Of a DNA stretch of 50,786 bases, positions 11,253-31,272 are shown piece by piece (the stretch's first letter is position 1; each line of letters starts with the position of its first letter). The stretch lies in the IMG/VR virus record IMGVR_UViG_3300030099_004693, positions 1-50,786 of that record; one strand, 5' to 3'. The notes under the pieces were generated by a model, which was given only the letters and a program-made list of their open reading frames with translations, was not told the origin of the DNA and made no database searches. This DNA is from a virus (lineage: Duplodnaviria; Caudoviricetes). The translations under genes and the position numbers were made by a program.

Positions 11253-11624
11253 ATGAAGACGAATGATATTTTTCTATATTGGACTGTTACAGTATTTGTA
11301 TTGGCAATTACAGCTGGTATGTATTTAAAACATATTGATTACTGGTTTATAGGTGCTGTAATTGTATTTTTACTAGTTGGTTACTATTTTGATATTGCAG
11401 AACAAGAACAGAATCATAAGACGAGTGTTCTTGATAAGTCTGATTATAAAATGCAATACCAGGCTCCAGATGAACCAGATTGGGAAGCTGAAGCTGCAAT
11501 ATCAGCAATAGAAGATAGTTGGGACGATTACGAAAAAATGTGGGATAGTAAAGTCAATTGTAACAAATGTAAAAACGAGGTTTATTTACATGTATGCATG
11601 TGTAAACCTGTAGTTAATAATTAA
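11253..11624 (+). CDS. Membrane protein (2 TM) with acidic tail and C-terminal Cys cluster
   Basis: Two hydrophobic segments; CNKC...HVCMC. Confidence 0.7.
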   Translation: MKTNDIFLYWTVTVFVLAITAGMYLKHIDYWFIGAVIVFLLVGYYFDIAEQEQNHKTSVLDKSDYKMQYQAPDEPDWEAEAAISAIEDSWDDYEKMWDSKVNCNKCKNEVYLHVCMCKPVVNN

Positions 11625-11627
11625 CGA

Positions 11628-11702
11628 AATAAAGCACGGATTTATTAGAGGATACTTTGCGTCGATGACAAGCTCAGTATTGGTCTCGGTTCGTGCTTTA
11701 TT
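11628..11702 (+). promoter_or_regulatory. Long intergenic hairpin before RBS
   Basis: AATAAAGCACGGA/TTCGTGCTTTATT 13-bp stem plus inner GATACT/AGTATT. Confidence 0.55.
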
Positions 11703-11721
11703 ACTAACTTATGAGGTAATA

Positions 11722-12081
11722 ATGAGATATAAAAACGAATTTGTAACATTAATTAGTGGTTGTGTAGCTGTTGTATTGTTAGGCTATTTATCATACAATG
11801 CAATGGTAACAAGAGATGTACCTGTCGAAAAGATAGTATATCAAGATAAAGAAGTAATGGTAGAAGTACCAAAGTATATAACAGAAACAATAACAGATAC
11901 AATATACAGAGACCAATTTATTCCTTTGTATTTAAGTATCAGTAAAAGTGAGTTTGAAGAGGTGTTTAGGCATTACCGAGATTTACGAGGTCCATGTAGT
12001 ACATTTGACTGGAATGGTAGACTATACAACACCAGACTCGACATAGAACCAAAAGATATTTGCTCTCCTAAAGTAAAATGA
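11722..12081 (+). CDS. Membrane-anchored hypothetical protein
   Basis: GAGG RBS supports a start at 11722; N-terminal TM followed by a VPVEKIV/VEVPK stalk. Confidence 0.7.
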   Translation: MRYKNEFVTLISGCVAVVLLGYLSYNAMVTRDVPVEKIVYQDKEVMVEVPKYITETITDTIYRDQFIPLYLSISKSEFEEVFRHYRDLRGPCSTFDWNGRLYNTRLDIEPKDICSPKVK

Positions 12082-12218
12082 GCTATATAAAACAATATTG
12101 TCCATACAGAACAAGATACGAATTATTAGAATGGGCAAAAACTCGGTATCCTTCAACCAAGTTTGATAGTAAGTGGTCTAAAAAAAGACTGTTCGCGCTA
12201 TACTACAATACTAAATGA
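12078..12218 (+). CDS. 46-aa hypothetical protein (not in ORF track)
   Basis: ATGA overlap; MSYIKQYCPYRTRYELLEWAKTRYPSTKFDSKWSKKRLFALYYNTK. Confidence 0.65.
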   Translation: MSYIKQYCPYRTRYELLEWAKTRYPSTKFDSKWSKKRLFALYYNTK

Positions 12219-12243
12219 AGGTGGTGTAAGAAACCATCTACTA

Positions 12244-12298
12244 GCAGGTGTATACAATACTCCTCTCATCCGTGTCTTGTTCGCGTGTATGCACCTGC
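12244..12298 (+). promoter_or_regulatory. Intergenic hairpin
   Basis: GCAGGTGTATACA/TGTATGCACCTGC 13-bp stem (one G-U). Confidence 0.5.
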
Positions 12299-12477
12299 AA
12301 ATAATTAAAACTATGTACCTCATAGTTATAGGTGATGGGTAACCATTATAAAGATATTGACGACTTATGTTAGGCACGTTACATAGTAACAGATGCATTA
12401 AGTATTGGAAGGGTCAAGCCACCTAAATTTTTAATTCAACAGATAAACAAGATAACGCTAACGTAAGGAGTCATGTT

Positions 12478-12747
12478 ATGGCAAACACAAATGTAATAAC
12501 AATAGAAAGTAATATACCAATACCAGAATCAAGATGGTTAGGGAATTCAGATAAATATGGGTTTGTAAATAATTTAAATGTAAGTGATAGTTTTTACATA
12601 AATGGAAATACTCCAGATTATAAACCACAAAATGTTAAGGCTCATATTTACAAATTAAATGCTAGTACTGATAAAAAATATACAATTAGAACTATTGAAG
12701 GAACATCAGCAAATCCTGTCGCAATAAGAGTTTGGAGAACAGCTTAA
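12478..12747 (+). CDS. Small conserved phage protein (IExNIPIP...KY.F..L.V.DSF...RVWR type)
   Basis: Pattern recalled from a common small phage family; AAGGAG RBS. Confidence 0.65.
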   Translation: MANTNVITIESNIPIPESRWLGNSDKYGFVNNLNVSDSFYINGNTPDYKPQNVKAHIYKLNASTDKKYTIRTIEGTSANPVAIRVWRTA

Positions 12748-12791
12748 TTTAACAGATAATAAGATAACGATAAAATAAAGGAGCCTATATT

Positions 12792-13061
12792 ATGGCAAAC
12801 GCAACAAGTGCACCTAGCGGTGAAAGAACAGTAAGTGTAAGTGAAAATGGTAGCTGGTCTACTAAAACAATCGTAGCAAATACTATTGGCGAACTAAGAA
12901 TAGCGTTAGATATACCTAACGAAGCTACAGTTAACGTTCAAGACCAATTGTATACAGATAATTCATCTGCAATGCCAGTTAACGAGCTAAATGATGATGG
13001 TACAACACGACCATTATGTATTGGCTGGGTAGCTAACAATAAAACAGGAGGCGCAAAGTAA
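12792..13061 (+). CDS. Ubiquitin-like (beta-grasp) protein precursor ending GG-AK
   Basis: Strand-strand-helix (TIGELRIAL)-strand-strand pattern, C-terminal NKTGGAK; next to JAB and E1 genes. Confidence 0.7.
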   Translation: MANATSAPSGERTVSVSENGSWSTKTIVANTIGELRIALDIPNEATVNVQDQLYTDNSSAMPVNELNDDGTTRPLCIGWVANNKTGGAK

Positions 13062-13086
13062 TGTATCCTGATAAGTAAATAATAAT

Positions 13087-13178
13087 TAAGGGGGACAATA
13101 AGCCAAGTAGTTCTAGTGGATATAGGTGGTGTTCACCGAACACAGAAACTAGACATAGACATCGGTGAGTCCCCCTTA
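13087..13178 (+). promoter_or_regulatory. Structured intergenic element with possible pseudoknot
   Basis: TAAGGGGGAC/GTCCCCCTTA closing stem, TCACCGA/TCGGTGA, crossing TCTAGT/ACTAGA. Confidence 0.5.
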
Positions 13179-13195
13179 TAAAATAAAGGAGAATT

Positions 13196-14818
13196 ATGAA
13201 TTTGTTATTAGATTTTAATTCAAGTCCAACAATTAATAAAAATATCGTAGAATGTAGTAAATCTCCTGTAGAATTTACAGAAACAGGAGCACGCATTAAG
13301 TTTATTAGACCACCACGATATGAGCCATCACACAATTCATTGTGGATAGATATTCTTAATATTGATACATTGTGGGATAATGTAGATGCAGAGCAGTTTG
13401 CAAATAACACAGGAATGCAAGACATAATAGCATTTAAAGAAGAGCTGGAAATAGTAAACACATATTTGTATGATGCTTTTGGAATAACAGATAAGATTGA
13501 TGTTACTAAATCATATGGTTGGAAGAAAGGTTGTTACGATATTGTTAAAGATGCAATTGCAAAAGCTCACAGATTTAACATGAGACCATCAGGTATGCCT
13601 AGTATATTCAACAGAATACAAGATAATAGGTGGATGTATGAACAGCTACAAAGACAAATGCTAGGTCTTGATGCTTATCGTAATAAAGCTAAATCAGCAG
13701 AAATAACACTTGATAGTAGTATCGAAAATATTATTGAAAGCCAACGAGCAGCTTATGATAATATCATAGAAAGTACAAATCAAGCTAATAATATGTCTGA
13801 TTATTACAAAGTATATAATTACATTGAACCATCAACTGATAGTGTTGATATTCAATTATATACAATTGTACATTGCAAATCAAAAGATATGACTATTATT
13901 AACAACAGAAACGAAGAGATATGTAAAATGAAAGTGCCTGAATGTTATCTTAAGTTTCATAGACCATTGTACAGAGCATTAAATGGTGGGAACAGGTATC
14001 CTTTACATTATACTGCAGCTGTTATGCATGGTAAACATCCATACATTAACGCAACACCGTATCGAAGGTTAAATCATTCGAGTATAGATAGATATGCATG
14101 GAGCACATTATGTCTATCTAGTTATACTGATGATATAGAGCGTGCGTTGAAAAAAAATGATTACATGTCTTTTGTTATGGGTATTATGAATTGGAATAAT
14201 ATTTATAATAAAGATGCAACTAATCCATATGCTGAAATCACACAAGTTATGACTTATGGTACATTTCCAGAAGTTAAAAACGAAGATGAACTGCATAGAA
14301 TAAGAACGGCTCTTAATATTAGTCTACACGAGTTCTTTCGCGCTAAATACTTTAAACACACAATGACAGAACTTGATAGTGTTCAAAGAGATTGGAACGA
14401 AAGAATAACTAGAAATTACTCTCCATATGCAAGATATATTGTTGAAGAATATGATAGTAAGAATTGTCCAACACGAAATGTTTGCACTGGATATCAAAAT
14501 CTTAAATCATATCTTGATTCAGATACGCAGTATATGGTAGAAGAAATGGTAGGTAATTTTCTTATTAATGACAATAGTAATGAGTTTGATGTAGGCTATG
14601 AGTTTCAAGAACTAGAATCAATACTAATGGCTATAAATCATTCTGTAAGAGCTGAAAACTTGTGGGACCAGTTACAGCAACTAAAGTACTCAGATGAAAC
14701 TGATTACTGGGGTGAAGCCCCGATAAAAACCGATAATAACCCTGATATTGCAGCGATGCAAGCTAAAATATCACAATGGGAAGAACAATTAGCAGCCTCA
14801 GGAGGTATAAATGAGTAG
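13196..14818 (+). CDS. Large protein with putative E2 (UBC-like) conjugating domain
   Basis: H281-PYIN...STL-C306-L then a helix and YN...NPY, echoing E2 HPNI...ICL...PN..SP; operon context. Confidence 0.6.
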   Translation: MNLLLDFNSSPTINKNIVECSKSPVEFTETGARIKFIRPPRYEPSHNSLWIDILNIDTLWDNVDAEQFANNTGMQDIIAFKEELEIVNTYLYDAFGITDKIDVTKSYGWKKGCYDIVKDAIAKAHRFNMRPSGMPSIFNRIQDNRWMYEQLQRQMLGLDAYRNKAKSAEITLDSSIENIIESQRAAYDNIIESTNQANNMSDYYKVYNYIEPSTDSVDIQLYTIVHCKSKDMTIINNRNEEICKMKVPECYLKFHRPLYRALNGGNRYPLHYTAAVMHGKHPYINATPYRRLNHSSIDRYAWSTLCLSSYTDDIERALKKNDYMSFVMGIMNWNNIYNKDATNPYAEITQVMTYGTFPEVKNEDELHRIRTALNISLHEFFRAKYFKHTMTELDSVQRDWNERITRNYSPYARYIVEEYDSKNCPTRNVCTGYQNLKSYLDSDTQYMVEEMVGNFLINDNSNEFDVGYEFQELESILMAINHSVRAENLWDQLQQLKYSDETDYWGEAPIKTDNNPDIAAMQAKISQWEEQLAASGGINE

Positions 14819-15779
14819 ACCTAACTTTATTATTAAAGAAAAAGCGTGGAACACTATGCAACAGTATGCAGGCATTGCATATGACAAGGATAAAAACGAG
14901 ATATCTGGATTGATACCATATAAACTAACAAAGCATCCTGTATCAAACGAGACTGTATATGAGTTATTTGACCCAGTTATCTTAAAACAAGAAAACTCAG
15001 GAACAACAACAGAGCTTGATGGTGAAGCGTTACGAGATTACCAAATTAAAGCTGGCATGAAATATGGAACAGACATCAGGTTTTGTTGGTGGCATTCACA
15101 TCATACAATGGGCGCATTCTGGTCAGGAACAGATGACAAAGAAATAAAAGCATGGAAGAATGATTCATGGTCACTTGCACTTGTTGTTAATCTGTTTGGA
15201 GAATACAAACTAAATGTATCTGTTTGGAAACCAATAGAGTTTTCTGAAGATGTGCCATTAGAAATTATAAGAGATATTCCTAAAGCAACAAAAACACAGC
15301 TTAAAGAATACGATGAATTATGTTCTAATAAAACAGAAGTCGTACATACTGGCTGGCAATCAAAAGGATATACTCCTCACAATCAAGTAACTATGTGGAA
15401 TAATCAAACTAAAGAAGATGCGCTTGACCCTAATGCGCACAAAAAGCTAAAATGGGTTCATGGAGAATCTATGGAACCTTATGCAGAGCTTATCGAAGCA
15501 TTAGATGAAGCAGTATCTGATATAATAGATGATTTCTGTCAAGGTACTATGGATTATAAAGAATATTCTAGCAAAATCAAAATGTTAAACAAAGACTTAA
15601 AGCAAAGAAATGCAAAAGTTAAAATTAATATACTGCCAAAAGGCAAAGTATTGGAAAAAGCAATGACTATGCAAGCTTGGGAACATTTAAAATATGATAA
15701 CGAAGCTGTAGAAAAATCATATGATGATGCTAGATTAACTAACTATCAAACAAACTATGGAGGTTATGGATGGGTATAA
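14811..15779 (+). CDS. JAB/JAMM (MPN+) metalloprotease
   Basis: E30...H95-S-H97-x7-S105-x2-D108, an exact JAMM motif. Confidence 0.9.
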   Translation: MSRPNFIIKEKAWNTMQQYAGIAYDKDKNEISGLIPYKLTKHPVSNETVYELFDPVILKQENSGTTTELDGEALRDYQIKAGMKYGTDIRFCWWHSHHTMGAFWSGTDDKEIKAWKNDSWSLALVVNLFGEYKLNVSVWKPIEFSEDVPLEIIRDIPKATKTQLKEYDELCSNKTEVVHTGWQSKGYTPHNQVTMWNNQTKEDALDPNAHKKLKWVHGESMEPYAELIEALDEAVSDIIDDFCQGTMDYKEYSSKIKMLNKDLKQRNAKVKINILPKGKVLEKAMTMQAWEHLKYDNEAVEKSYDDARLTNYQTNYGGYGWV

Positions 15780-16441
15780 ACATGAGAAGCGAAGGCTTAG
15801 TAAACACTTTGCATGAATATACTTTTCATATATTAGGTTGCGGAGCTATTGGTAGTTCTGCAGCTACTCAGTTACTAAGATGTGGTGCTAAAAACTTTGT
15901 ATTATACGATATGGATAAAGTAGCAACAGAAAACATCGGCGTATCTCAGTATATGGATGAGCATATTGGCATGTTAAAAACTGAAGCATTAGAAGAACAT
16001 CTGATGAGTATTAATTGTAGGAACGTAGAAATAATACAATCACCAGAATACTTTAACATGTTTCGATATCAAAATAATAATGACATTGTAATATTAGGTT
16101 TTGATAGTATGAAATCTAGAAAACATGCAGTTCAAGAAATATGTTCAAATAAACAAACTAAACCATTCTTGTTGATAGATGGTAGGATGGGCGGTGAACA
16201 TTACCAACAATATTTGTTTAAAGACTTGACACTAAATAAATATCTAAAAACATGGTATTCTGACGAAGATGGTGATGCAGAGCCATGTAATGTCAAAGCA
16301 ACAAGTTATTGCTCAAATATGGCAGGTAGTATGATTGTAAACGCTATTAGAAAGGTAGTTACAGATAGTCCTTACGAAACAATGTTGACTTTTAACTTCC
16401 CTACAATGACAATACAAAAAAATACTTGTTTCCCAGCCTGA
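15770..16441 (+). CDS. ThiF/MoeB/E1-like adenylyltransferase
   Basis: GCGAIGS, DMDKV..EN, G..K..AL, FDS...R, IDGRMG, candidate catalytic C173 (EPCN). Confidence 0.92.
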   Translation: MGINMRSEGLVNTLHEYTFHILGCGAIGSSAATQLLRCGAKNFVLYDMDKVATENIGVSQYMDEHIGMLKTEALEEHLMSINCRNVEIIQSPEYFNMFRYQNNNDIVILGFDSMKSRKHAVQEICSNKQTKPFLLIDGRMGGEHYQQYLFKDLTLNKYLKTWYSDEDGDAEPCNVKATSYCSNMAGSMIVNAIRKVVTDSPYETMLTFNFPTMTIQKNTCFPA

Positions 16442-16454
16442 CAATTAGTAAATT
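16426..16454 (+). promoter_or_regulatory. Possible sigma70-like promoter for the replication module
   Basis: TTGTTT-17 nt-TAAATT with an upstream A-tract. Confidence 0.35.
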
Positions 16455-16490
16455 GATAGCTCGTCTTCAATCTCTGAAGGCGAGTTATCG
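16454..16490 (+). promoter_or_regulatory. 16-bp hairpin after the E1 gene
   Basis: TGATAGCTCGTCTTCA-ATCTC-TGAAGGCGAGTTATCG, three G-U pairs. Confidence 0.55.
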
Positions 16491-16515
16491 TTATCGTAAA
16501 TAAGGAAAAAACACA

Positions 16516-17190
16516 ATGAAACTAACAAAAGAAAAAAGGAAAGCTATTTCTGTAAATCCTTCTACTTTATTATTGTATGGAGCACCTAAAGTTGGTAAAA
16601 CTACCATGCTATCTAATTTAGATGATTGTCTAATAATAGATACAGAAAAAGGTAGTCGTATGATTGAAGGTTACATACAAGAAGTAAATAGTAGAGATGA
16701 GTTAATTGAAACATTAATAGCTATTAAAGAAAGTAAAGATGTAAAGTATAAATATATAGCTATTGATACAATTGATAAAGTCGCAGAATGGGCTGAACGC
16801 AGAGTATGCGAAGAAGAAGGTGTGAACTCTATTGCTGATTTAGCATTTGGTAAAGGTTATGGACTTGTACGTGAAAAAGTAGCTAAAACTATTTCACATT
16901 TCAAAGAAGTAGCAGAACATCTTATCATCATTGGACATAGAAAAGTAGCGTATGCAGTAACAGAAGGTAACCCTATAGTAATACCAGAATCTCTTGATTT
17001 AACAGGTAAACTAAAAAATGTTATCATGGCTGGTTGTGATGCTATTGGATATGTATATCGTGATGACAAAGAAAACCTAATGGTGTCTTTTAAAGCTAAT
17101 GATAGCATAGAAGCAGGTAGTAGATGTCCTCATTTAAAGGGTAAAGAAGTTAAATTTGAATGGAAAAATATATATAAGGAGGCTAAATAA
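16516..17190 (+). CDS. AAA_24/Sak4-like P-loop ATPase (ssDNA annealing/recombination)
   Basis: LLYGAPKVGKTT, IIDTEKG, IAIDT, FGKGY, IIIGH. Confidence 0.85.
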   Translation: MKLTKEKRKAISVNPSTLLLYGAPKVGKTTMLSNLDDCLIIDTEKGSRMIEGYIQEVNSRDELIETLIAIKESKDVKYKYIAIDTIDKVAEWAERRVCEEEGVNSIADLAFGKGYGLVREKVAKTISHFKEVAEHLIIIGHRKVAYAVTEGNPIVIPESLDLTGKLKNVIMAGCDAIGYVYRDDKENLMVSFKANDSIEAGSRCPHLKGKEVKFEWKNIYKEAK

Positions 17191-17802
17191 ATGGCTATAT
17201 TCAAACCAGAAACAACAAGTGCAGGAACAGGGACTCCTAAGTCTTCATACTTAGGAGCAATAGAAGTGGGTACAGTAGGATTTAAAGATAGAAGTGGCGA
17301 CTTTCCAGGACAAGACTGGGCTGAGATATTTTTAGAAATAGAATTATCTGTCAAAGGTAGCGAATACACAAATAAAATGTCTTTATTAGGTAGATTAGAT
17401 AAAGATAGTGAAGGTAAAATAGTTGGAGGTAGTGTACTAAAAAGAATGTACAATATCTTTGATATGATTGGATTTAAAGGTGGTCTTACTATTGATAAAA
17501 AATGGGAAGACGAAAATGGCAATCAAATAACTAATATTGCAGAACATCTTAACAGCAACTTTAAAATGGATGGACAGGACTTTATTGCGTATGCATACAA
17601 AAAGAAGCCTAAAAAGCCAGGAGATAAAGTATATACAGAAATGTGGCCTAAACTATGGTTAAACACAGAAGGTGGCAGAATGCAGTGCGACAAAGATGTT
17701 AAATGGCTTAAAGAAAATGGTTATCTAAAGGAAGCTAGTCAAGATGATTTTGCTCCAAAAGGACAAACTAATTTAGCAGACAACGCATTAGCTAATCTAT
17801 GA
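17191..17802 (+). CDS. Putative ssDNA-binding protein
   Basis: Lies between the Sak4-like ATPase and primase; beta-rich; positional inference. Confidence 0.4.
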   Translation: MAIFKPETTSAGTGTPKSSYLGAIEVGTVGFKDRSGDFPGQDWAEIFLEIELSVKGSEYTNKMSLLGRLDKDSEGKIVGGSVLKRMYNIFDMIGFKGGLTIDKKWEDENGNQITNIAEHLNSNFKMDGQDFIAYAYKKKPKKPGDKVYTEMWPKLWLNTEGGRMQCDKDVKWLKENGYLKEASQDDFAPKGQTNLADNALANL

Positions 17803-19565
17803 AATACGTAGAGGTAGCAGTCGGAGGTCCTCATAACCGAGGAAATCTAGTTTTGCGTAGTGAGCTTGGCCATTATCTTCCTAAAGATGGAAGCCCACTA
17901 TATCGCTCTGTTTATCTCTACGGTGATGATGCAAAAGAATATGCTGATTCACATAGGACGTTAAAAGGCTATCACGGTAAGCGTGGTATTGATAATATAC
18001 TTATTGATATAGACAAAAAAGATAATTCAGATGAATACACACTAAAACAATTGCGTACTACTCTTCAACATCTAAATACCCTAGAAGTCCTAGATGAGAG
18101 TATACAATGCTATTTTAGTGGTACTGGTTATCATATCGTCATAACAAACAAAGTATTCAATTTCCAAGCTAGTGATAGCTTGCCCTATCAAGTAAAACAA
18201 ACCATGTCGAATCTGTTTGAAGATATTGACTCAAGTATCTACATGAGAAGTGGAATATATCGTGTGACACACACAAAAAACCAGAAAACAGGTTTATATA
18301 AAATACCTATTACACTACATGAAGCATACAACAAAACATATCAACAGATACACGAGATGGCTAAAGACCCACGCTTTGAGTACCCATATGAATTATTAGA
18401 TGGAGATTGTGAACTAGAAGGCTATATATGCCTAGATGTACCAAAAATACGTCAACAAGGCAAAGTTAGTGAACCTACGAAGGTAGTACCTTGTGTACAA
18501 ACAATGCTTAGGAATGGCCCAATACAAGGCTCTAGGCACAATACACTACTTAGGATAGCTAGTTATCTAAAAAGAAATGGAGTACCCAGCGACTATGCAA
18601 AAGTAATGATATTGCATTGGAATAACAATATGATGGATGAAGAAGCAGTCATACAAAAAATAGAATCTGTTTACAATGGAAACTATAGATACAGTTGTCA
18701 TGACTCAATTATGAAAGAACATTGTCAAACTAAATGTGTTTATTTCAAAAACAAAAACTATCATATCGATGTAAAAGATTCTGATACATTACAAAAAGAA
18801 TATGAAGAACGCTTAGAAACCAACTTCCAAGGTAGAACTGTACCTTTATCAGATATGTTTGGTTTAAAAGGATATGATACACAAATATATCCAGGCGAAC
18901 TTGTAACGATATTCGGTCCAACAGGGTCTAACAAAACTACACTCGCACAGAATCTTGCATTGGGTGTAGATTTTAAAAACGATAGAATAAACAAACAATG
19001 GCAAATACCAACATTGTTTTTATCACTAGAGTTATCAGCATGGTACATGCACAGACGTCATTTGCAAATAGTATCTGGTTTATCAAAAGAAGAAGTGAAT
19101 GCTAATTACAAAGAAGTATACAAGCGTCATTCTGATGAGCTACAACATCTACATATACAAACAGTTACACCAACACTAACATCAATACAAGACAAAATAA
19201 AAGAACTAAGTCCATATCTTGTAGTAGTTGATTATATAGATTTGGTAGATACACCAAAAGATGTTAAAGGAGAGTATGAACAAATTAAATACATATCTCA
19301 TAACTTATCTAATATGGCTGTTAATCTAGATGTTATTATTATACAAGTATCACAAGTTAGTAGAGAATACAGTAGAAATGAAGTTTTAGACCTGTATGCA
19401 GGTAAAGGTTCAGGTGCTATTGAGAATGCATCACGTAAAGTGATTGGTCTTAATGGACAGGCTGATTCTAATATAAAAGAAATTCATATGTACAAAAATA
19501 CTGACGGTGAATTATTTGACGTTGATGTAGAATGGAATGAAAGCTTTAGGTTAAGGAGAATATAA
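17799..19565 (+). CDS. AEP primase-polymerase fused to PriCT-like and SF4 (DnaB-like) helicase domains
   Basis: IDID, FSGTGYH, GSRHNTL, C..H..C..C cluster, Walker A GPTGSNKTT, VVVDYI, VSQVSR. Confidence 0.88.
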   Translation: MKYVEVAVGGPHNRGNLVLRSELGHYLPKDGSPLYRSVYLYGDDAKEYADSHRTLKGYHGKRGIDNILIDIDKKDNSDEYTLKQLRTTLQHLNTLEVLDESIQCYFSGTGYHIVITNKVFNFQASDSLPYQVKQTMSNLFEDIDSSIYMRSGIYRVTHTKNQKTGLYKIPITLHEAYNKTYQQIHEMAKDPRFEYPYELLDGDCELEGYICLDVPKIRQQGKVSEPTKVVPCVQTMLRNGPIQGSRHNTLLRIASYLKRNGVPSDYAKVMILHWNNNMMDEEAVIQKIESVYNGNYRYSCHDSIMKEHCQTKCVYFKNKNYHIDVKDSDTLQKEYEERLETNFQGRTVPLSDMFGLKGYDTQIYPGELVTIFGPTGSNKTTLAQNLALGVDFKNDRINKQWQIPTLFLSLELSAWYMHRRHLQIVSGLSKEEVNANYKEVYKRHSDELQHLHIQTVTPTLTSIQDKIKELSPYLVVVDYIDLVDTPKDVKGEYEQIKYISHNLSNMAVNLDVIIIQVSQVSREYSRNEVLDLYAGKGSGAIENASRKVIGLNGQADSNIKEIHMYKNTDGELFDVDVEWNESFRLRRI

Positions 19566-22619: not shown

Positions 22620-22869
22620 CTCAGGGCAGAAAGAATACGCTCATGATGAAGATAATGTATTTGCTAACTTCGAAAGAGTAGCAGAATCCTGCAATATATC
22701 CAGAGAACAAGCTCTTTGGGTATATGCATCAAAACACTTTGATGGAATATCTGCTTATGTTAAAGGATATAAAAGTCAAAGAGAAGATGTACGTGGTAGA
22801 TTAACAGACCTTACAGTATACTTATGGTTGTTGTGGGGTATGATAGAAGAATCAGAAAGTAAGTCCTGA
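22549..22869 (+). CDS. All-alpha nucleotide-modification-associated/MazG-like-fold protein
   Basis: KEYA...VFANFERVA...KH...RL.DL..Y pattern. Confidence 0.45.
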   Translation: MMKHKEMKNLMEKKILPQITKTRDSGQKEYAHDEDNVFANFERVAESCNISREQALWVYASKHFDGISAYVKGYKSQREDVRGRLTDLTVYLWLLWGMIEESESKS

Positions 22870-25800
22870 CCCAGGTGTTGGGACTTTTCTTTCTTCACCT
22901 TCTCTTAATTCTTTGGACGCTCTACTTAATCCTATTAATGGTATGCCTGTCCATTTATCTACAAGTGACATTGGGTTTTCTATTAAATTGTTTTGAGCAA
23001 CAAAATCTCTAGATATTCTTCCAAATGGATACATAGTGTGTATGTAATAGTTAGCTACTCGTTCCCAATCATCTTCTAATACAGCTCTCATAGATGCCAT
23101 TGGCAGTCTTGCTATTGGTGGAGTAATTAGTTGTAATGGTGCAATTGGCTGTGGCCATTGCCCAAAAAATGCTCTTTTCTTATCTTTTTCATCACCAAAC
23201 AACCATTCACTAGTATCCTGCATCCAGTTCCATGGCGATGGCATTGCAGTATCAAATAATGAATATGCAAAAGCATTACCTAATGAAAATACAAATAGGT
23301 CTAATTGCATTATTCTTGCCACACGTTCTGCTTCTTTACCTTTAAAACCATATAATCTAGCTTGTCTTAATGCTTCTCTTCTAAAACGTATAGCATTCCA
23401 GCCCCAAAGCTGGAAACGTGTCATTACTTTACCTAATGCTGTTCTAGCAAACATAGGTCTAAATGGAGCAGAATATAAAAACTGAGTAGATTTAACTCCT
23501 TTCTTAGCTAAATCTATTAATATAGGGTGGTCAAACTCTCTAATAGCACCATTGAATTTTTTATACCAAAATAAATAATGTGCCATAAATGCATCTCTTC
23601 TTAATGCTCTTTCTGGTACAGACATAAACTTAGCTGCTAATTCTGTAACAGGTCTTGTGATACCCTTTTCTTTACCTAAATCTAAAACAGATTCACTAGA
23701 TAAATTAGGGTCACGTTTAAGTTTACGTGCAACAAGTTCAATAAACTCTTTATTACGAGATGATTGATATTCTGTTGCTAAACCATATTCCTCAAGTAAT
23801 TGCTCAGGCAATACGCCTTGTTTAATTACAAACGCTTCTCTAGCTTCTTTAGATGCAAACTTATCACTAAGTGCAGCCATATATTTATTGTTTCTAGCAT
23901 CCATCCAAGTCTTCATACCAACAGATTGTACAGTATGCATAGTACCACCAAAAATATTAGCAACAACAGACTTAGGATGTGCTAATAACGATGCTAACTC
24001 AAACTTAGCTTCTAGGTTACTCCAGTTACGTACATCATTTAAATCTAAACCTCTAAGTTCTTCAGGTAATTCTTTCTTAATTAATCCTAATTTGTCTCCT
24101 ATTTTATTAAGTCTATCTTTAACTCTATTATCAGCCCACCATCCATAAGGTGTACCTTTTATTTTCATGTTAGGATTTTCATAAACATACTCAGGGACAA
24201 CATCAGGATTGCCTATAGCGCCTTGCACATAAAGTTTTAAGAATGTAGACCACGATTCTTTAATGTTTTCTGGTACTTTTCTATCAAACATTGACTGTTC
24301 AAACTTAGATATAGTATCTCTTGCAAGTATTTGAGCCCATTGTTTGTAATATGTATTGTTTAAACTTTTACCATAGCCTGTGGGAACCTGTATGTCTAAT
24401 GAATATCCAGGTATATGACCTTCTCTACTAAGCTGAGAACCAGTTTTCTTTATATCTTGCAACCAACTTATACGTTCTTCTTTTTTTTGTTTACGTTTGC
24501 CTATATTTTCTAAACTTTTATTAAATCCTTCCCAAGTATTAATAGCTTCAAACATATAATCACCAGTTAATGCGTGATGTCTGTATGTTAATTTAGTTAT
24601 TAACTTATCTTGTTCTTTAGCATCTAAACTGCTTTTGCGTATATATTTTACATATTCTTTAAGTGCGTTAAGTGCGGTTTTTTTACTAAAATGATTATGT
24701 GGAAAATACATTTCTTCTGATATTCTACCAGTTCTAGATGGAAATGTTTCATACATTTTTTTCAATTCTTTTTTCTTTAGTTTTTTAGTATTAGTAGCTA
24801 TTTCATATTTCATTGACCTAGCTATAGTATTTATACCATCAATACCAAATTCTGTCGGTATTTTTTTGTTTTTAGCTACAGCTCTATTAAAATCGTTTAC
24901 AAGTTTTTCAAAGTTAATAATTGGATTTTGTTTAGTTTTAGGGTCGTAAAATCCTTTAACGTAGCCACTATTTTTAGGACCAGATGTAAATCCAGGAATA
25001 CCAAACTCTATAGCTTTTTGTAATGCATATAATGGTTGACCATCTGCAGTTGTTCCTATTACTTTTAAATTACCAGAAGAATCTTTAGGAACATTACCTT
25101 GTGCAATCTCTAATTCTTTTTTATAATATGCTGTTTCTTTATTGTTAATAATATCAACAATTTCAGAACCCTTTAACTTTTGCAGTTTTTTATCTATTTC
25201 AACAGTATAAACTTTATCTTTTAAATCAGTTTCGTATTTATGTTTTTTAGTAATTTCATTAAAAGCATCTGTATATGTCTTAGCGTGAAACATAGCAAGA
25301 GGTTTATCTTTTTTACTTACATCTGTTAAAATCTTTTCTGCCATAGGAAGTTCTCGTTTAACCATAGCTACTTCCCATAATTGTTTGCCTTCAGGTATAG
25401 CATCTAAAAACGTATATTCTTTTACTCGTTCTAAAGATAACTGTTCATTGGCTGCATCTGCTGCATCTAACACGCTTTTAATTCTATATTGAGTAATGTC
25501 TATGTACTGAGTAGGTAATATAGACTTACCAGTCTTCATACCTTCTGCTGTCATAAATATACCTTTCTTTTGCATCAGAACAATTTCATCTCGCATTAAT
25601 TCTTTATTAATAGTTTCAGGAAACTGTAAATATGTACGCTGTGATACTTTACTAATATCTTCACCTTTTAATCGTTGCCAAAAAGTACCAGTCTTAGTAT
25701 CTCTAAGCCAATTGCGAAGTACCATCCAGTCCTGTTTATTAAATATATTTATATCTTTGCCTACAACTTCACGTGCAATAAATCCAATGTTTTGTACTAC

Positions 25801-28800
25801 TTTATTGTTTTCTGTTTTTAAGTCCATTACAATGTCATCAATATAACCCTTAGTCTCAGCATCTAGTTTAGTTTTACCTTTAGCTTCTTTAACGCCTTCC
25901 CATCCAGTAGTAAATACTTCTGTTAGTTTAGCATCAGATTCCTCAGGCCACCCTTTTTCAATGCTTTCTTTTTTAGTAGGTTCTTCTAATAGTATAGTTC
26001 CTTCTCTTCGTATTTGTTCTGGTGCACGATGAGTAGATACTTCGTTGTATGTATTGTTTATTTCACCTAAAAACTTTCCAATAGAATTAGTTTCCATAGC
26101 TTCGCTGTTGTATCCCAACATAGATGATGACGTTCTTGCTGTATTTGTAAGCTCTGTATCATAGTCTTTTTGTTCCTTATTAGTTAAAGGTCTTTCTAGT
26201 TTAATTGCGTTTAGTTCTGCTAACTTTTCAAGATTACCACGATTCAATGAACCTAACATTAATGTATCAAACAATCTTTTTTCTATGTCAGTTCTATTAC
26301 GTTTCCATTTTCTTATCTCTGCATCAATAGCATTTTGGTCTTTAATCGATGAACCTTTAGACTTTCTTTGTCTACCAATATTTAGTTCAGTATCTAAACT
26401 ATTTCTATCATCTCTCATTAGATACGATTCTGCTTTTAATTTTTCTACTGTAGTATGCGCATCTTCTATCATTGCATTTACTTCAGCTTTTGTAATACCA
26501 GGAACTCTTTTCTTTACAACATCTATAATTTTTACAAGCTCTTGTACAGTCACCATTGTTTGTATATCTCTACCAGAAAAATCACCAGCTTGTTCTTTTA
26601 ATCGTTCTAATACAGCAATGCGTTCTTGTTCTGTGTAAAGTTTATTTTTTGCCTTTTTAAATGTAGCAAACTTAGTTCCTTTTATAACATCGTAAAACGT
26701 AGCTTTGTTTTTAGCAGCTGCAACTAATGCATCAGGGTTTAATAAATTGTATTTATACACTTTATTAATAATTGTAGGAGTAGGTGTTTTTAATGTTCTT
26801 CTTCCTAACATACCTTTTAAAGAACTATACTCAGCTACACTTTTGTTGTAGTTATTATATAAATCTGTTATTCTATCAAATTTTACTCTATTTAATGCGT
26901 GGTCAGAATAGTCTATATTATGTAACAGTCTAGCTATTTTAGGCGTCATAGTAGTAATATTCTTTGGGTCTTCAGCCATAAGTTCTGCTGTAAGATTCTT
27001 TCTGTCTTCCATAGTATATTGACGTTGATTTGTATAATCTTTGCCGTAGTATGCATTATTAGCTTTACTTAACATACCAATAACACCATTTTTATTAAAC
27101 TCTGAAACATTCAACTTAGCTAATGGCACTTTTGATTTAACAATAAAGTGAGCCTCTAATGCTTGTTTATACCAATTCTCATAGCCTTTAGGCTTACCAT
27201 AATCCATTGCATCTGATGAAAAACCAACCATAGCACGCATTAGTTTATTTGCGTAATCTATTTCTTGAGGTTTAGTTTTAGGGATAAGAGTTACTTTTAT
27301 ATCTTTACCAAAATGTTTAACAGTAAACTCGTCTTTACCTTTATTAAGTATCATTTGATATGCAGATGCCATAATGTTTTTAGGATTAACAGCAGCTCCA
27401 CCAAGAAGTCCTCTACCTTCTACAGCACCTTCTGATGCTTGATGTCGCATATTAGGCGCAAACATACCAGCCTGACTTTTAAATAACGCGTCTTCTCTTG
27501 GACTATATTCTTGTATAAGCTTTTTCTCAAATTCTTTAGCTTTGTTATCAGCTATTTTAAACCTACCATCTTTCTGTTTAACATAGAACTCTTGTTCTTG
27601 AGCTTCCATTACATCTTTATATTCTTTCTTTAAACCACCCTTACCACCAAAGTACATATACGCAGAATCAATATCAAGGTCAGCACCACCTAACGCTCTC
27701 ATCTTTAACCCATGCATTAGTATGCCATAGTCATTTCTTCCAGTAAACCCAGCAAACTGCAATATTTGTGTACCAGAGTTAGAATCTGCTGGAACTCTTA
27801 TAACTGCAGTCCTAAAAACCTCTTCTAGCCGTTTTTTAGCCGATTCTGGAGTACTTTTACTTAAGTACGTGCTATAGAGCTCTTCGAGTGTTTTCTTTCC
27901 ATATAGCTCTGTTTCAATAACTTTCTTTTTATGTTTGTCTCCAAGGAAAAATATTTTAGAATTTGTATTTAATTCTTTTAACCTAGGATTAACACCATCT
28001 AAATCTTTCTGTAATCCTTCATCATATGGTCTAATAATAGCTGCAGCAGAGTTTTTAACCTTTGGTTTAGTAACAGAGTTTACTATCCAACTAGACATCA
28101 TTTTATCTCTGTATTTGTTTATATCTGGATGCGTAAATATATTAGCTTCATTCTCTGGTTTACCACGTTTAATAGCGTCTTTACGTGCAGCTGCTATCAT
28201 TTTTTGTGCAACAGAATGGTAATACTCAACTTCCCTATTGTTTGCATCGTATTCTGCTTCTGTCATTACACCTTCGGCATACTCTTCTCTTATAGCAGAC
28301 TTTCTATTTAACAATAGATAGTTATAAAATGCCTTAGAAAACAATTGATTACCAGGTTGTTTCATAGCATCTGTTATACGTTCTAACCCAATAGCATCAA
28401 AATCTAGCTTATCTAGTTCTTTAGCTAATTGTTTATCTGATGCTGTAGGTAGTTTTTCTAAGTACGCATCTAATGCTTCATTAGCTTTTGCATCACCTTT
28501 AATACGTGGCTCCATAAAATCTTTAAATATACCATCAACTGCTTCTTTGACAGTAAAGCCATCTTTAGATGCTTTTTGAAATGCCATAGCTTCTACTAAA
28601 TTAGTAAGCATTTGTTTTTTAATACTCTGCGGTGCAATAAACTTTTTACTTTGCTTTATGCCTAAATCTTGTTTAATATGCGTAGGGTCTAAATCATATA
28701 CTTCATAAAACTCTCTTGTACCTTTTTGTTTAACAGCAGATGCCATAATATTCATATGTATACCAGCATCTTTCATTTCTGCTGATAACTTAGGTCCTGC

Positions 28801-31272
28801 TGGATGTATTGCATATTTACCAAGCAATGCACCGTGCTCAGCATTAGGCGATACTATTAATGATTTATTAGTACCAGATTCAGGCGTACCTTTTTCTAAA
28901 TTTAAAGCTCGTACAACATCATCTCTAGCTATAATAGCACCATCAAGATGTTCTTCTGTTTTAGTAGACTCTATGTCTGAAAACTTAGCAGCTTCTTTCA
29001 TTTTATCTTGTAATCGTTTAGGTAAGTTTTGACCAAAATCAGGTATAATATTATATCTAAAATTACCTTCTACTAAATCAGCTATGTGCCCAGGGCTTTG
29101 TTTGTTAGTAAAAAACTCTTTTTCAGCAGAATATGCATCTGTCATTAATAATGGCAGTCTTTTATTAAATGCTATTGCATTCTTTAAAAACCCATCGCCT
29201 TGCATTTTTTTAATATTAGCAGGTGTAAACTCTAAACCATTCATTTCTAACTGCCATAATACGTTAGATGCAAACCCTCTATCAAACTCAGCTTGAGTTA
29301 AATTGTATTTTTTCTTAAAATCATTTCTAAGCGCACGAATATCTGATGCTTTAAATTGAGATATAATAGTTCGCATGTTACCAGCTGTATTGCTTTTAGG
29401 ATGATGTTTCATAAAGTATAGTCTGTCTGCAGTACCTTTACCACCAAAATAACTATAACCTTTTTTATTCATTTCTTTTATAGTGCCGCCTACTAAATTA
29501 TAGTAATCTTTTGCACCACCATACTCTGCATACTCCATCTGTTTAAGTTTTTGTAATGATATTTCACGTTGACCATTTTCACCTTCTACAACTATATGGT
29601 CAAGAAACGTATGTGCACGTTCATCTTTGCCAGTTAACTTTTTCCATATTTGGTCAGCTATTTTTAATGGCTCTGTTAATATTTTTTTATTACCTGCTAA
29701 ATTCTTAGCATTCTGCTCTGTTAAAAAGTATATATTAGTACCATCTGTCGTAAGTACTTCTGTAACCTTATCGTTTTTATATCGAGTAATAAACTGTCTT
29801 ATATCACCTTCTGTACGCAATACTCTTTCTGGGTCTTTATTAGAATTTTTAATTTGATATTTATAGTCTTCTTGTAGCATTTCTTGTATTTTTCTAAATG
29901 CATCAGATGACTCGTTAGTCTTGGGACCTCTAACGTATTTGTCTAGTATATTAGACATTTTAGTTGTTATCTCAGCTGTCTGGTCTAATCTTTCTTGAGA
30001 TGTAATTTCTTTACCTTTAAAAAAATCAGGCATATCAAACCTAACTATGTTTTGAGCTTTATTGCCTATCTTTGGGTCTATAGTAGGTTCTACGCCTACA
30101 TTACTTTCTTCTGTGCTACCAGTCTCAAATACTTCTTTTTCTTTCTCTACTATCTTAGTAGGCTCAGTTTTAACCTCTACTTTAGGTACACCCTCTTGCT
30201 CTAATAATTTTTCTGTTTCTATATTTAATTGTTTTTGTAATTCATTGGCAGCTGTTCGTTGCACCTGTTCTTCTACAGTTCCTCTAGTTTGATTAAACTG
30301 AGTAATTACTTCTTTTTGTACTTCAGGCGGTAATTTACTAAACTCAGGATGTCTAGCAGGGTCATATATTTCAACCAATGCTTCGTTACCAGGTTTTTGT
30401 GCATCTTTTTCATATTTTTGTGAAAACTTTTGTGCTTTAGCTACAGTCCATGGTCGTTCTTGTCCTCCAAACCAAGCACCCATAACATATTCATAAACTT
30501 GCTCAGGTGTAGTTGCACCTCTCATAGTAGCAGGTAATCCCATAAACAATGAACCTGCTAATGTTTTAGCTACTTTATTACCAGCTTCACTTCCAGTATT
30601 AACAAAGTTACCTATACTTCTAAATACACCACCAGCTTGCGCGCCACCTACAAATGCAGCCATCATTTCATCGACACCACCTTGCCAAGCTGATGCTGCT
30701 GATGCTGCTCCTAAATGAAATGCACCTTCAGCTATATGTCTAGCTCTTTCACCTAATATAAAATTACTAGCAGTTCTTACTGCATCATTTTTAGCCAGTC
30801 TACCTTGATTTAAAAATGGTTTAACAATTTTTTTTGTTTGTTTAGTTGCAAAATTAGCCACAGCCATAGGAACAGACTTGTTGTTTAATGAACGAGCAGT
30901 ATTAGCTGCTGTCATAAGAGATGTAGTTTTAAGTCCTAACTTAGCAGATACTTTAGCAGCAGCACCTAATGGCGCTCCTATAATACCAGGTGCAAACCCA
31001 GCTAAATGACCTAGGTTTTTAAAAATTGCTTCGTATTCGTTGTCTGGAGTGTCGCCTACTTTTAATGTAGTAAAACCTTCTATAAACCCCGAGCCAAGGT
31101 CTGTTAATGCATCAGATATACTAAATTCACCGCTATAAAAAGGTATGTTGTGATAATCAGCGTGTTGCTGTATTGTGTCTTTGAGGTTTGCATAAGCGTC
31201 TGGATTCTTTTTATAAGAATCAATTAATGTTCTTACAGTACGCTCATCCAATCGTGGTTGGAACTCAGCCAT
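22852..31272 (-). CDS. Giant ejection protein with double-psi-beta-barrel (crAss-like) virion RNA polymerase
   Basis: RVP...FAGF...GGA-D1198-L-D-I-D1202 catalytic-like loop; upstream LLGKY and S845-AVK; Gly/Ala-rich N-terminus; last gene of the ejection cluster. Confidence 0.75.
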   Translation of the reverse strand: MAEFQPRLDERTVRTLIDSYKKNPDAYANLKDTIQQHADYHNIPFYSGEFSISDALTDLGSGFIEGFTTLKVGDTPDNEYEAIFKNLGHLAGFAPGIIGAPLGAAAKVSAKLGLKTTSLMTAANTARSLNNKSVPMAVANFATKQTKKIVKPFLNQGRLAKNDAVRTASNFILGERARHIAEGAFHLGAASAASAWQGGVDEMMAAFVGGAQAGGVFRSIGNFVNTGSEAGNKVAKTLAGSLFMGLPATMRGATTPEQVYEYVMGAWFGGQERPWTVAKAQKFSQKYEKDAQKPGNEALVEIYDPARHPEFSKLPPEVQKEVITQFNQTRGTVEEQVQRTAANELQKQLNIETEKLLEQEGVPKVEVKTEPTKIVEKEKEVFETGSTEESNVGVEPTIDPKIGNKAQNIVRFDMPDFFKGKEITSQERLDQTAEITTKMSNILDKYVRGPKTNESSDAFRKIQEMLQEDYKYQIKNSNKDPERVLRTEGDIRQFITRYKNDKVTEVLTTDGTNIYFLTEQNAKNLAGNKKILTEPLKIADQIWKKLTGKDERAHTFLDHIVVEGENGQREISLQKLKQMEYAEYGGAKDYYNLVGGTIKEMNKKGYSYFGGKGTADRLYFMKHHPKSNTAGNMRTIISQFKASDIRALRNDFKKKYNLTQAEFDRGFASNVLWQLEMNGLEFTPANIKKMQGDGFLKNAIAFNKRLPLLMTDAYSAEKEFFTNKQSPGHIADLVEGNFRYNIIPDFGQNLPKRLQDKMKEAAKFSDIESTKTEEHLDGAIIARDDVVRALNLEKGTPESGTNKSLIVSPNAEHGALLGKYAIHPAGPKLSAEMKDAGIHMNIMASAVKQKGTREFYEVYDLDPTHIKQDLGIKQSKKFIAPQSIKKQMLTNLVEAMAFQKASKDGFTVKEAVDGIFKDFMEPRIKGDAKANEALDAYLEKLPTASDKQLAKELDKLDFDAIGLERITDAMKQPGNQLFSKAFYNYLLLNRKSAIREEYAEGVMTEAEYDANNREVEYYHSVAQKMIAAARKDAIKRGKPENEANIFTHPDINKYRDKMMSSWIVNSVTKPKVKNSAAAIIRPYDEGLQKDLDGVNPRLKELNTNSKIFFLGDKHKKKVIETELYGKKTLEELYSTYLSKSTPESAKKRLEEVFRTAVIRVPADSNSGTQILQFAGFTGRNDYGILMHGLKMRALGGADLDIDSAYMYFGGKGGLKKEYKDVMEAQEQEFYVKQKDGRFKIADNKAKEFEKKLIQEYSPREDALFKSQAGMFAPNMRHQASEGAVEGRGLLGGAAVNPKNIMASAYQMILNKGKDEFTVKHFGKDIKVTLIPKTKPQEIDYANKLMRAMVGFSSDAMDYGKPKGYENWYKQALEAHFIVKSKVPLAKLNVSEFNKNGVIGMLSKANNAYYGKDYTNQRQYTMEDRKNLTAELMAEDPKNITTMTPKIARLLHNIDYSDHALNRVKFDRITDLYNNYNKSVAEYSSLKGMLGRRTLKTPTPTIINKVYKYNLLNPDALVAAAKNKATFYDVIKGTKFATFKKAKNKLYTEQERIAVLERLKEQAGDFSGRDIQTMVTVQELVKIIDVVKKRVPGITKAEVNAMIEDAHTTVEKLKAESYLMRDDRNSLDTELNIGRQRKSKGSSIKDQNAIDAEIRKWKRNRTDIEKRLFDTLMLGSLNRGNLEKLAELNAIKLERPLTNKEQKDYDTELTNTARTSSSMLGYNSEAMETNSIGKFLGEINNTYNEVSTHRAPEQIRREGTILLEEPTKKESIEKGWPEESDAKLTEVFTTGWEGVKEAKGKTKLDAETKGYIDDIVMDLKTENNKVVQNIGFIAREVVGKDINIFNKQDWMVLRNWLRDTKTGTFWQRLKGEDISKVSQRTYLQFPETINKELMRDEIVLMQKKGIFMTAEGMKTGKSILPTQYIDITQYRIKSVLDAADAANEQLSLERVKEYTFLDAIPEGKQLWEVAMVKRELPMAEKILTDVSKKDKPLAMFHAKTYTDAFNEITKKHKYETDLKDKVYTVEIDKKLQKLKGSEIVDIINNKETAYYKKELEIAQGNVPKDSSGNLKVIGTTADGQPLYALQKAIEFGIPGFTSGPKNSGYVKGFYDPKTKQNPIINFEKLVNDFNRAVAKNKKIPTEFGIDGINTIARSMKYEIATNTKKLKKKELKKMYETFPSRTGRISEEMYFPHNHFSKKTALNALKEYVKYIRKSSLDAKEQDKLITKLTYRHHALTGDYMFEAINTWEGFNKSLENIGKRKQKKEERISWLQDIKKTGSQLSREGHIPGYSLDIQVPTGYGKSLNNTYYKQWAQILARDTISKFEQSMFDRKVPENIKESWSTFLKLYVQGAIGNPDVVPEYVYENPNMKIKGTPYGWWADNRVKDRLNKIGDKLGLIKKELPEELRGLDLNDVRNWSNLEAKFELASLLAHPKSVVANIFGGTMHTVQSVGMKTWMDARNNKYMAALSDKFASKEAREAFVIKQGVLPEQLLEEYGLATEYQSSRNKEFIELVARKLKRDPNLSSESVLDLGKEKGITRPVTELAAKFMSVPERALRRDAFMAHYLFWYKKFNGAIREFDHPILIDLAKKGVKSTQFLYSAPFRPMFARTALGKVMTRFQLWGWNAIRFRREALRQARLYGFKGKEAERVARIMQLDLFVFSLGNAFAYSLFDTAMPSPWNWMQDTSEWLFGDEKDKKRAFFGQWPQPIAPLQLITPPIARLPMASMRAVLEDDWERVANYYIHTMYPFGRISRDFVAQNNLIENPMSLVDKWTGIPLIGLSRASKELREGEERKVPTPGSGLTF

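Follow-up and report, generated by a model that had tools for sequence, protein, structure and literature searches.

Work on bacterial ubiquitin-like (Ubl) conjugation systems, among them CBASS Cap2, Bil and Bub, has until now treated them as defences of the host against phages. The locus described here raises the question of whether a phage can itself encode such a system and, if so, what part its largest protein would play. We analysed IMG/VR record IMGVR_UViG_3300030099_004693, a whole virus record (Caudoviricetes) of 50,786 bases rated 99% complete; this entire stretch of DNA is referred to below as the window. A four-gene module in it encodes, in this order, a ubiquitin-like tag, a 540-amino-acid (aa) protein (P0001), a JAB metalloprotease and an E1 (coordinates in Table 1), and a first-pass annotation made from the sequence had read the 540-aa protein as an unusually large E2-like enzyme. 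What makes such a protein interesting is the GG-ended tag gene upstream of it, together with the phage setting: here the full kit of tag, E1, E2-type protein and JAB is a fixed part of a phage replication module.

Our analysis indicates that the 540-aa protein is probably the E2-type carrier enzyme of a phage-encoded Ubl conjugation system. This reading is well supported by its fold, by an invariant cysteine and by the operon context; the thioester chemistry and the order of steps are what we infer. The open reading frame (ORF) is uninterrupted, and stops abound on the opposite strand. In a word-indexed search 18 relatives from marine metagenomes came up, most of them full length (529-554 aa), at 29-90% identity. 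When 1.84 billion representatives were searched exhaustively with HMMER, 91 clusters scored E≤1e-3, of which 33 reached ≤1e-10 and 14 reached ≤1e-30. Judged by these full-length relatives and clusters, the gene is real. The longest HMMER cluster does not exceed 699 aa, so no fusion of the E2-like protein to JAB or E1 was seen. The expectation of an unusual, large E2 architecture is supported in part, in that a three-part organization of 480-700 aa is kept across the family, in the E2 slot of a Ubl-E2-JAB-E1 operon. This family has no Pfam, PHROG, NCBIfam or PADLOC model, and the window protein itself had no match in these collections apart from one sub-threshold DUF (E 0.015). The gene and locus had no match by tblastn or megablast among 50,697 phage records, and two pattern scans covering 185,579 prokaryote species, with one genome per species, were likewise without a relative. 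In the literature, covered in part and without supplements, we found no paper on this family or on a Ubl/E2/JAB/E1 module of lytic phages.

Fold and conserved residues of the core

We folded residues 170-400 with a 75-member alignment, and the resulting domain model (pLDDT 92.1, pTM 0.87) matched E2/UBC and RWD structures in structure searches; the full-length model was middling (pLDDT 75). The E2-like core with a UBC fold proposed by the first-pass annotation is thus borne out, and its extent is corrected from residues 215-350 to about 176-360. The model shows the N-terminal helix, the antiparallel beta-meander and the helices on one face that define the UBC/E2 superfold. Along the chain, helix 176-200 is followed by a six-strand sheet (204-276), the HPY motif (281-283), C306, helices, W333 and N343-P344. 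The HPY motif stands directly after the last strand of the sheet, and C306 lies 2 residues before a helix and 17 before a long helix, the order of elements in the model being long helix, sheet, HPY, loop, Cys, helix, long helix and N-P turn. The same order has been described for classical E2s (Iyer, Burroughs and Aravind 2006, PMC1779556; here and below, the accessible part of that paper).

Conservation was counted in 75 mostly full-length family members. C306 was invariant, both in these database relatives (75/75) and in 54/54 distinct full-length viral copies; W333 and P344 were likewise present in 75/75, and P282 (71/75), Y283 (70/75), Y337 (69/75), I284 (68/75) and N343 (65/75) were near-invariant. 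From its place in the modelled topology and its invariance, C306 is the candidate catalytic cysteine, presumably equivalent to that of E2 enzymes. The long loop that had been noticed between HPYIN (residues 281-285) and the cysteine is present, with 21 residues between Ile and Cys, and proves to be a variable trait of the family, the same spacing ranging from 10 to 23 residues in 52 pattern-matched viral copies. The local motifs HP[NY]I and [VIL]CL[DS] are similar to those of the canonical UBC active site.

Several observations weigh against the E2 assignment. No sequence method ties the protein to any E2: the E2 families of Pfam (UQ_con, Prok-E2_A to E) were matched neither by the window protein at E≤0.1, nor by the 75 relatives at E≤0.01, nor by 33 isolated cores at E≤10, and PDB profile searches with two profiles gave 0 E2 hits, with only unrelated matches at E≥0.46 or none. 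Foldseek searches of the PDB with the whole and domain models returned no match at E≤1e-3, the best E2-type row being Cap2 at E 0.092. Of the two residues that the first-pass annotation had singled out for a conservation check, C306 stood up and H281 did not, since position 281 is His in only 48/75 members and otherwise Phe (24/75), Tyr (2/75) or Asn (1/75); other prokaryotic E2 classes likewise lack the His of the HPN motif (PMC1779556). The core sheet is six-stranded, as against four. The identification of C306 with the catalytic Cys of E2s rests on topology and invariance. Finally, E1-like enzymes can conjugate tags without an E2, as in the archaeal SAMP systems, and an operon of this kind therefore does not strictly need one. 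No relevant Pfam match of any sort was found in the 75 relatives, and Prok-E2_D (PF14460) was absent in a six-frame search of the window. In a language-model look-up the three nearest named clusters were all Prok-E2_D, with scores of 0.86-0.87, which we treat as a lead only.

These points leave room for a protein that does not catalyse: a UBC/RWD-type scaffold that binds the tag, the E1 or the target, with any conjugation carried out by the E1 alone, as in the E2-free archaeal and Thermus systems. We hold this to be unlikely, because a single Cys is kept in every relative and every viral copy counted, at the topological position of the E2 cysteine, and because RWD and UEV domains typically lack that Cys (PMC1779556). 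An E2-type carrier enzyme remains our preferred reading of the core.

Flanks, divergence and the C-terminal tail

The first-pass annotation had placed about 210 aa of helical or coiled-coil sequence before the core. A long helical hairpin is indeed predicted there, with confidence, and the flank is now delimited to 175 aa, including a small beta unit; its conserved residues are G112 (73/75), Y114 and R140 (69/75). In the C-terminal flank, W528 near the end of the protein is conserved in 67/75 members. The CPTRNVC motif noticed earlier is found in this flank, at residues 424-430, and its cysteines form two of four family-wide Cys columns, at positions 380 (66/75), 419 (54/75), 424 (74/75) and 430 (69/75). 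The window protein keeps C424 and C430 only, F380 and Y419 replacing the other two. The alignment suggests that the four columns make up one Cys4 metal site in most of the family. A RING or E3-like reading of CPTRNVC was considered and ruled out, as the motif forms part of one four-Cys pattern and is what is left of a site that has degenerated in the window. In a VIA search with the whole model, matches to the helical hairpin masked everything else, which leaves the flanks without a recognised fold. In line with the earlier remark that no separate E3-like gene was visible, no RING, HECT or other E3-type Pfam match was obtained among the neighbours scanned.

We compared the rates at which the parts of the module diverge in a set of 35 loci whose E2-like protein is less than 60% identical to that of the window. 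Median identity to the window was 66% for Sak4, 59% for E1, 59% for the primase-helicase and 54% for the catalytic half of JAB; it was 28% for the tag, 26% for the C-terminal half of JAB and 21% for the whole E2-like protein (19% in the N-terminal flank, 24% in the core and 21% in the C-terminal flank), which is the fastest-diverging part of the module. In a close relative (L007) the tag is 99% identical and the C-terminal flank of the E2-like protein 51%. Taken together, the medians and this close pair indicate a rate of evolution several times higher for the tag, the E2-like protein and the JAB tail than for E1 and the replication genes of the same genomes. Such uneven divergence fits recognition surfaces that co-evolve, or an arms race, and suggests an arms race or a shifting target, though it points to no particular target. 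Selection of targets by the flanks of the E2 would also be consistent with it, without being proven by it. The flanks may mediate oligomerisation or E3-like target recognition, as the first-pass annotation proposed; the support is indirect, coming from this fast divergence and from the published proposal that Bil E2s select their targets with no E3 (PMC11601596).

The C-terminal tail called for separate consideration. There is an 8-nt overlap between the E2-like and JAB genes, and the codons for S-G-G near the end of the E2-like gene contain the ribosome-binding site of the JAB gene, which probably accounts for the ...GG, followed by a few residues, at the end of many relatives. The ...SGGINE tail was tried as a Ubl-like end and rejected on the grounds that its codons are this ribosome-binding site and that the tail is not conserved family-wide. 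A related proposal makes the 540-aa protein the cargo: the E1 would activate its ...SGG tail, as happens to CD-NTases in type II CBASS. Several relatives do end in GGINE, GGVHE, SQNG or GG, and W528 and a short tail are conserved. The tail Gly is, however, not kept across the family, the ribosome-binding site explains the conservation of the S-G-G codons in the window, and a distinct, canonical GG-ended tag gene is seen in every locus whose flank reaches far enough, all of which make this proposal extremely improbable.

Table 1. Features of the module and its surroundings. Positions are those of the window unless preceded by a locus label.
Feature	Position	Strand	Remarks
Plus-strand block	~10.5 to 22.9 kb	+	closed by terminator-like hairpin at 22861-22886
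Ubiquitin-like tag precursor, ThiS-like, 89 aa	12792..13061	+	ends ...NNKTGG-AK
AGGAG ribosome-binding site of the E2-like gene	13187..13191	+	4 nt 5' of the start codon, read from sequence
E2-like protein (P0001), 540 aa	13196..14818	+	second gene of module
N-terminal flank, residues 1-175	13196..13720	+	small beta unit and long helical hairpin (helices 65-95, 134-167)
UBC/RWD-type core, residues 176-360	13721..14275	+	from domain model, structure searches and conservation
H281 codon (HPY motif)	14036..14038	+	from conservation
C306 codon, candidate catalytic cysteine	14111..14113	+	from conservation
C-terminal helical flank, residues 361-540	14276..14815	+	degenerate Cys4 site (F380, Y419, C424, C430), E449, W528
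CPTRNVC, residues 424-430	14465..14485	+	two of four family-wide Cys columns
AGGAGG ribosome-binding site of the JAB gene	14800..14805	+	within E2-like codons S535-G536-G537 (TCA GGA GGT)
JAB/JAMM metalloprotease, 322 aa	14811..15779	+	catalytic part ~1-160 (E-x-x-G, then HSHHTMGAFWSGTD) and ~160-aa extension
ThiF/MoeB-type E1, 223 aa, single adenylation domain	15770..16441	+	Pfam ThiF E 2.1e-20, residues 11-217
Unnamed protein-JAB-ThiF triad, uncultured phage cr85_1	L068:2685-5669
Unnamed protein-JAB-ThiF triad, Flavobacterium phage FpV4	L069:2551-5621

The tag, JAB and E1 genes and the order of the module

Across 24 aligned relatives of the tag, K84, G86 and G87 never vary (K-x-G-G). The tag homologue ends exactly at GG (...NNKVGG) in most of the 51 related loci listed, a set that excludes the window's own locus (L001), and in the others it continues for 1-21 residues. 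The Pfam model ThiS was matched by 4/24 tag relatives (best E 1.6e-4) and ThiS-like by 1/24; the window copy itself had no Pfam match. The JAB protein of the window matched Prok-JAB under the cut-off (E 8.7e-4), and the HxHx7SxxD motif with its upstream ExxG was found in 51/51 distinct related JAB copies. Its C-terminal extension (15291-15779, residues 161-322) diverges like the E2-like protein, at 26% against 54% for the catalytic half, and the JAB tail is rich in Gly and aromatic residues (…NYGGYGWV in the window, GFGGHFA and FGGGWYGN in relatives). This extension may be a partner-binding part. The JAB and E1 genes overlap by 10 nt. The E1 is of the same size in 25 relatives, in which GCGAIGS, D47, D112, R139, C173 and C181 are invariant, and over its nucleotide-binding part it matches the E1-E2 models of PADLOC (E 2.4e-13). 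The best NCBIfam ThiF model gave 79.5 bits against a cut-off of 159.

The names of these matches bring up a sulfur-carrier pathway. A ThiS-like protein, a ThiF-like E1 and a JAB could make a thiocarboxylate donor, as CysO/Mec and QbsE/QbsD do, with the 540-aa protein as a Cys-dependent sulfur acceptor or transferase acting, for instance, in a nucleic-acid modification carried out by the replication module. Besides ThiF and ThiS being the best NCBIfam/Pfam names for the E1 and the tag, the location of the module among DNA-metabolism genes speaks for such a pathway. We nevertheless consider it very unlikely: the ThiF score is far under the equivalog cut-off, the E1 has no rhodanese domain, no rhodanese, PP-loop or desulfurase-type Pfam match was found in the ORFs scanned at 11253-19565, and the partner protein has a UBC-type fold. 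The E1s of E2-containing neighbourhoods have been described as lacking rhodanese as well (PMC1779556).

The order tag, E2-like, JAB, E1 recurs in related viral contigs wherever the contig allows. We fetched 66 IMG/VR loci (9 + 51 + 6; two contigs appear twice), and phmmer found the tag, E2-like protein, JAB, E1 and Sak4 in that order in 42/66. Nineteen of the other 24 are cut by the end of the locus or contig: 14 lack the tag only, with the start of the E2-like gene less than 450 nt from the locus end in each, three end at or just past JAB, one is a 1.4-kb fragment and L066 ends before JAB. Of the remaining loci, L063 lacks Sak4 only. In L062 and L064 the tag gene was missed by phmmer and found by eye, with 17-21 residues after the GG, and L065 and L067 gave the same matches. 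Insertions are tolerated in the module: about 1 kb separates the tag gene from the E2-like gene in L003 (L003:2572-3598), and in L064-L067 a stretch of about 3.3 kb with small ORFs lies between the E2-like gene and JAB (L064:7031-10346).

On the E2-type reading, the system could work as follows. The JAB would first trim the two residues that follow the GG of the 89-aa ThiS-like tag. The 223-aa ThiF-type E1, probably a homodimer like its relatives, would then adenylate the exposed glycine, and may hold the tag on C173 or C181. C306 of the UBC-like core would next take over the tag in thioester linkage. With no separate E3 involved, the E2-like protein would then attach the tag to a lysine of the target, its N- and C-terminal domains holding the E1 and/or the target. 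The JAB could also reverse the mark. As to its biological role, the system could serve host takeover, counter-defence or the exclusion of rival phages. If it does conjugate, the module would offer a tractable four-gene system for the study of how an E2 chooses targets without an E3, a model for a minimal E1 of ThiF size handing over to an E2, and a window on what phages gain by tagging proteins.

Phage setting, possible relatives and known systems

The four-gene module is placed in the replication block of this complete 50.8-kb phage. The terminase, portal, major head and tail genes all lie on the minus strand, while the module belongs to the plus-strand block, where the E1 gene is followed by Sak4, a 203-aa protein and a primase-helicase. 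No deposited phage has a TerL more than 27% identical to that of the window, and the carriers of the module appear to be a group of uncultured marine phages of about 50 kb. Some further features of the genome were noted. The 203-aa protein (17191-17802) has no family match and always stands between Sak4 and the primase-helicase; guessing from this position, it may be a single-strand DNA-binding protein. An 89-aa ORF at 12478-12747, just 5' of the tag gene, recurs in the distant loci L025, L038 and L064 (E 1e-18 to 1e-23), and a 46-aa ORF at 12078-12218 (…QYCPYRTRYELLEWAKTRYPSTKFDSKWSKKRLFALYYNTK) is near-identical in L008, although the E2-like protein of L008 is only 41% identical. The structural block contains two giant minus-strand ORFs, at 22852-31272 (2806 aa) and 37825-43866 (2013 aa), which together take up about 28% of the 50.8-kb genome.

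The nearest phage relatives of the E1, at 28-32% identity, are in crAss-like and Flavobacterium psychrophilum phages, and the 75 phage records with E1 relatives include 29 from Bacteroides, 29 from Flavobacterium and 12 uncultured. The replication regions of crAss-like and FpV4-type phages share this layout: an unnamed protein (371/420 aa), then a JAB with a long C-terminal extension, then a ThiF of about 230-255 aa. No separate GG-ended tag gene is annotated at these triads. Foldseek against viral models (BFVD) matched our core model to crAss-like proteins of 373 aa (E 3.6e-4) and 435 aa (E 7.9e-3) and to an unnamed 420-aa entry (E 1.0e-4), which may be the proteins encoded upstream of JAB. 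Comparison of the E2-like family with the crAss and FpV4 upstream proteins by hhalign was negative, as was the profile-profile comparison with a 35-member crAss family (probability 0.3%). An invariant H-S-H-I ... P-C-L-G pattern in the crAss family recalls HPYI...CL[DSG]. A wider scenario, which we offer tentatively and think somewhat doubtful, is that a widespread lytic marine phage lineage encodes a complete Ubl conjugation machine in its early/replication programme, with a related core perhaps present in the triads of crAss-like gut and Flavobacterium phages. The giant, rapidly diversifying E2 would then be an E2/E3 hybrid that tags specific proteins of the host or of rival phages, a viral use of Bil chemistry for host takeover, counter-defence or superinfection exclusion. 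The crAss-like link, if true, would extend the system to the most abundant human gut viruses.

How does the module compare with systems already described? Its list of parts is shared with class 6d of Iyer, Burroughs and Aravind (2006) and the PRTRC cassette (TIGR03735/03736), and E2-like proteins of class 6d also depart from the classical His (PMC1779556). The phage proteins nevertheless scored far below the PRTRC models, with 26 bits against a cut-off of 144.75 for PRTRC_ThiF and 14.8 against 101.8 for PRTRC_A. Neither an extra alpha-helical protein nor a ParB was recognised at the phage module, and the size and flanks of the E2 differ. Type II CBASS also brings together E1 Rossmann, E2-type and JAB domains in Cap2/Cap3; Cap2, however, is an E1-E2 fusion that conjugates the C-terminus of a CD-NTase without a separate Ubl, whereas in the phage the genes are separate and a Ubl is present. 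No CD-NTase match was found among the neighbours scanned (six proteins in PADLOC). Bub works through oxyesters, without the Cys. The large eukaryotic E2/E3 hybrids UBE2O and BIRC6 are alike in architecture only, with no sequence relation and with unrelated flanking domains.

The closest parallel in gene order is with the Bil systems of type I/II, in which BilA is the Ubl, BilB the E2, BilC the JAB and BilD the E1 (Chambers et al., 10.1101/2023.09.26.559546; Hör et al., 10.1101/2023.09.04.556158; as for PMC11601596 below, we refer to the accessible parts of these papers). The order Ubl-E2-JAB-E1 is the same (10.1101/2023.09.26.559546), the Bil tag has a terminal Gly as well, in some cases followed by a short stretch that the JAB cuts off, and Bil also lacks an E3, its E2s having been proposed to recognise targets directly (PMC11601596). 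No sequence similarity to Bil was seen: our PDB profile searches returned no BilB chain and the structure lists no Bil chain, no direct comparison with BilB sequences being made. BilD is a multidomain E1, with inactive and active adenylation domains and a mobile CYS domain, whereas the phage E1 is a single domain of 223 aa. The catalytic Cys of E. aridi BilB is C138, which implies a small E2; the phage protein, at 540 aa, is three times larger than a Bil E2 and has two extra domains. The type I BilA of Collimonas has two ubiquitin-like domains (10.1101/2023.09.04.556158), and the phage tag a single ThiS-like domain of 65-89 aa. Lastly, Bil operons are found in bacterial defence islands, whereas the phage module lies in the replication block of a 99%-complete phage genome.

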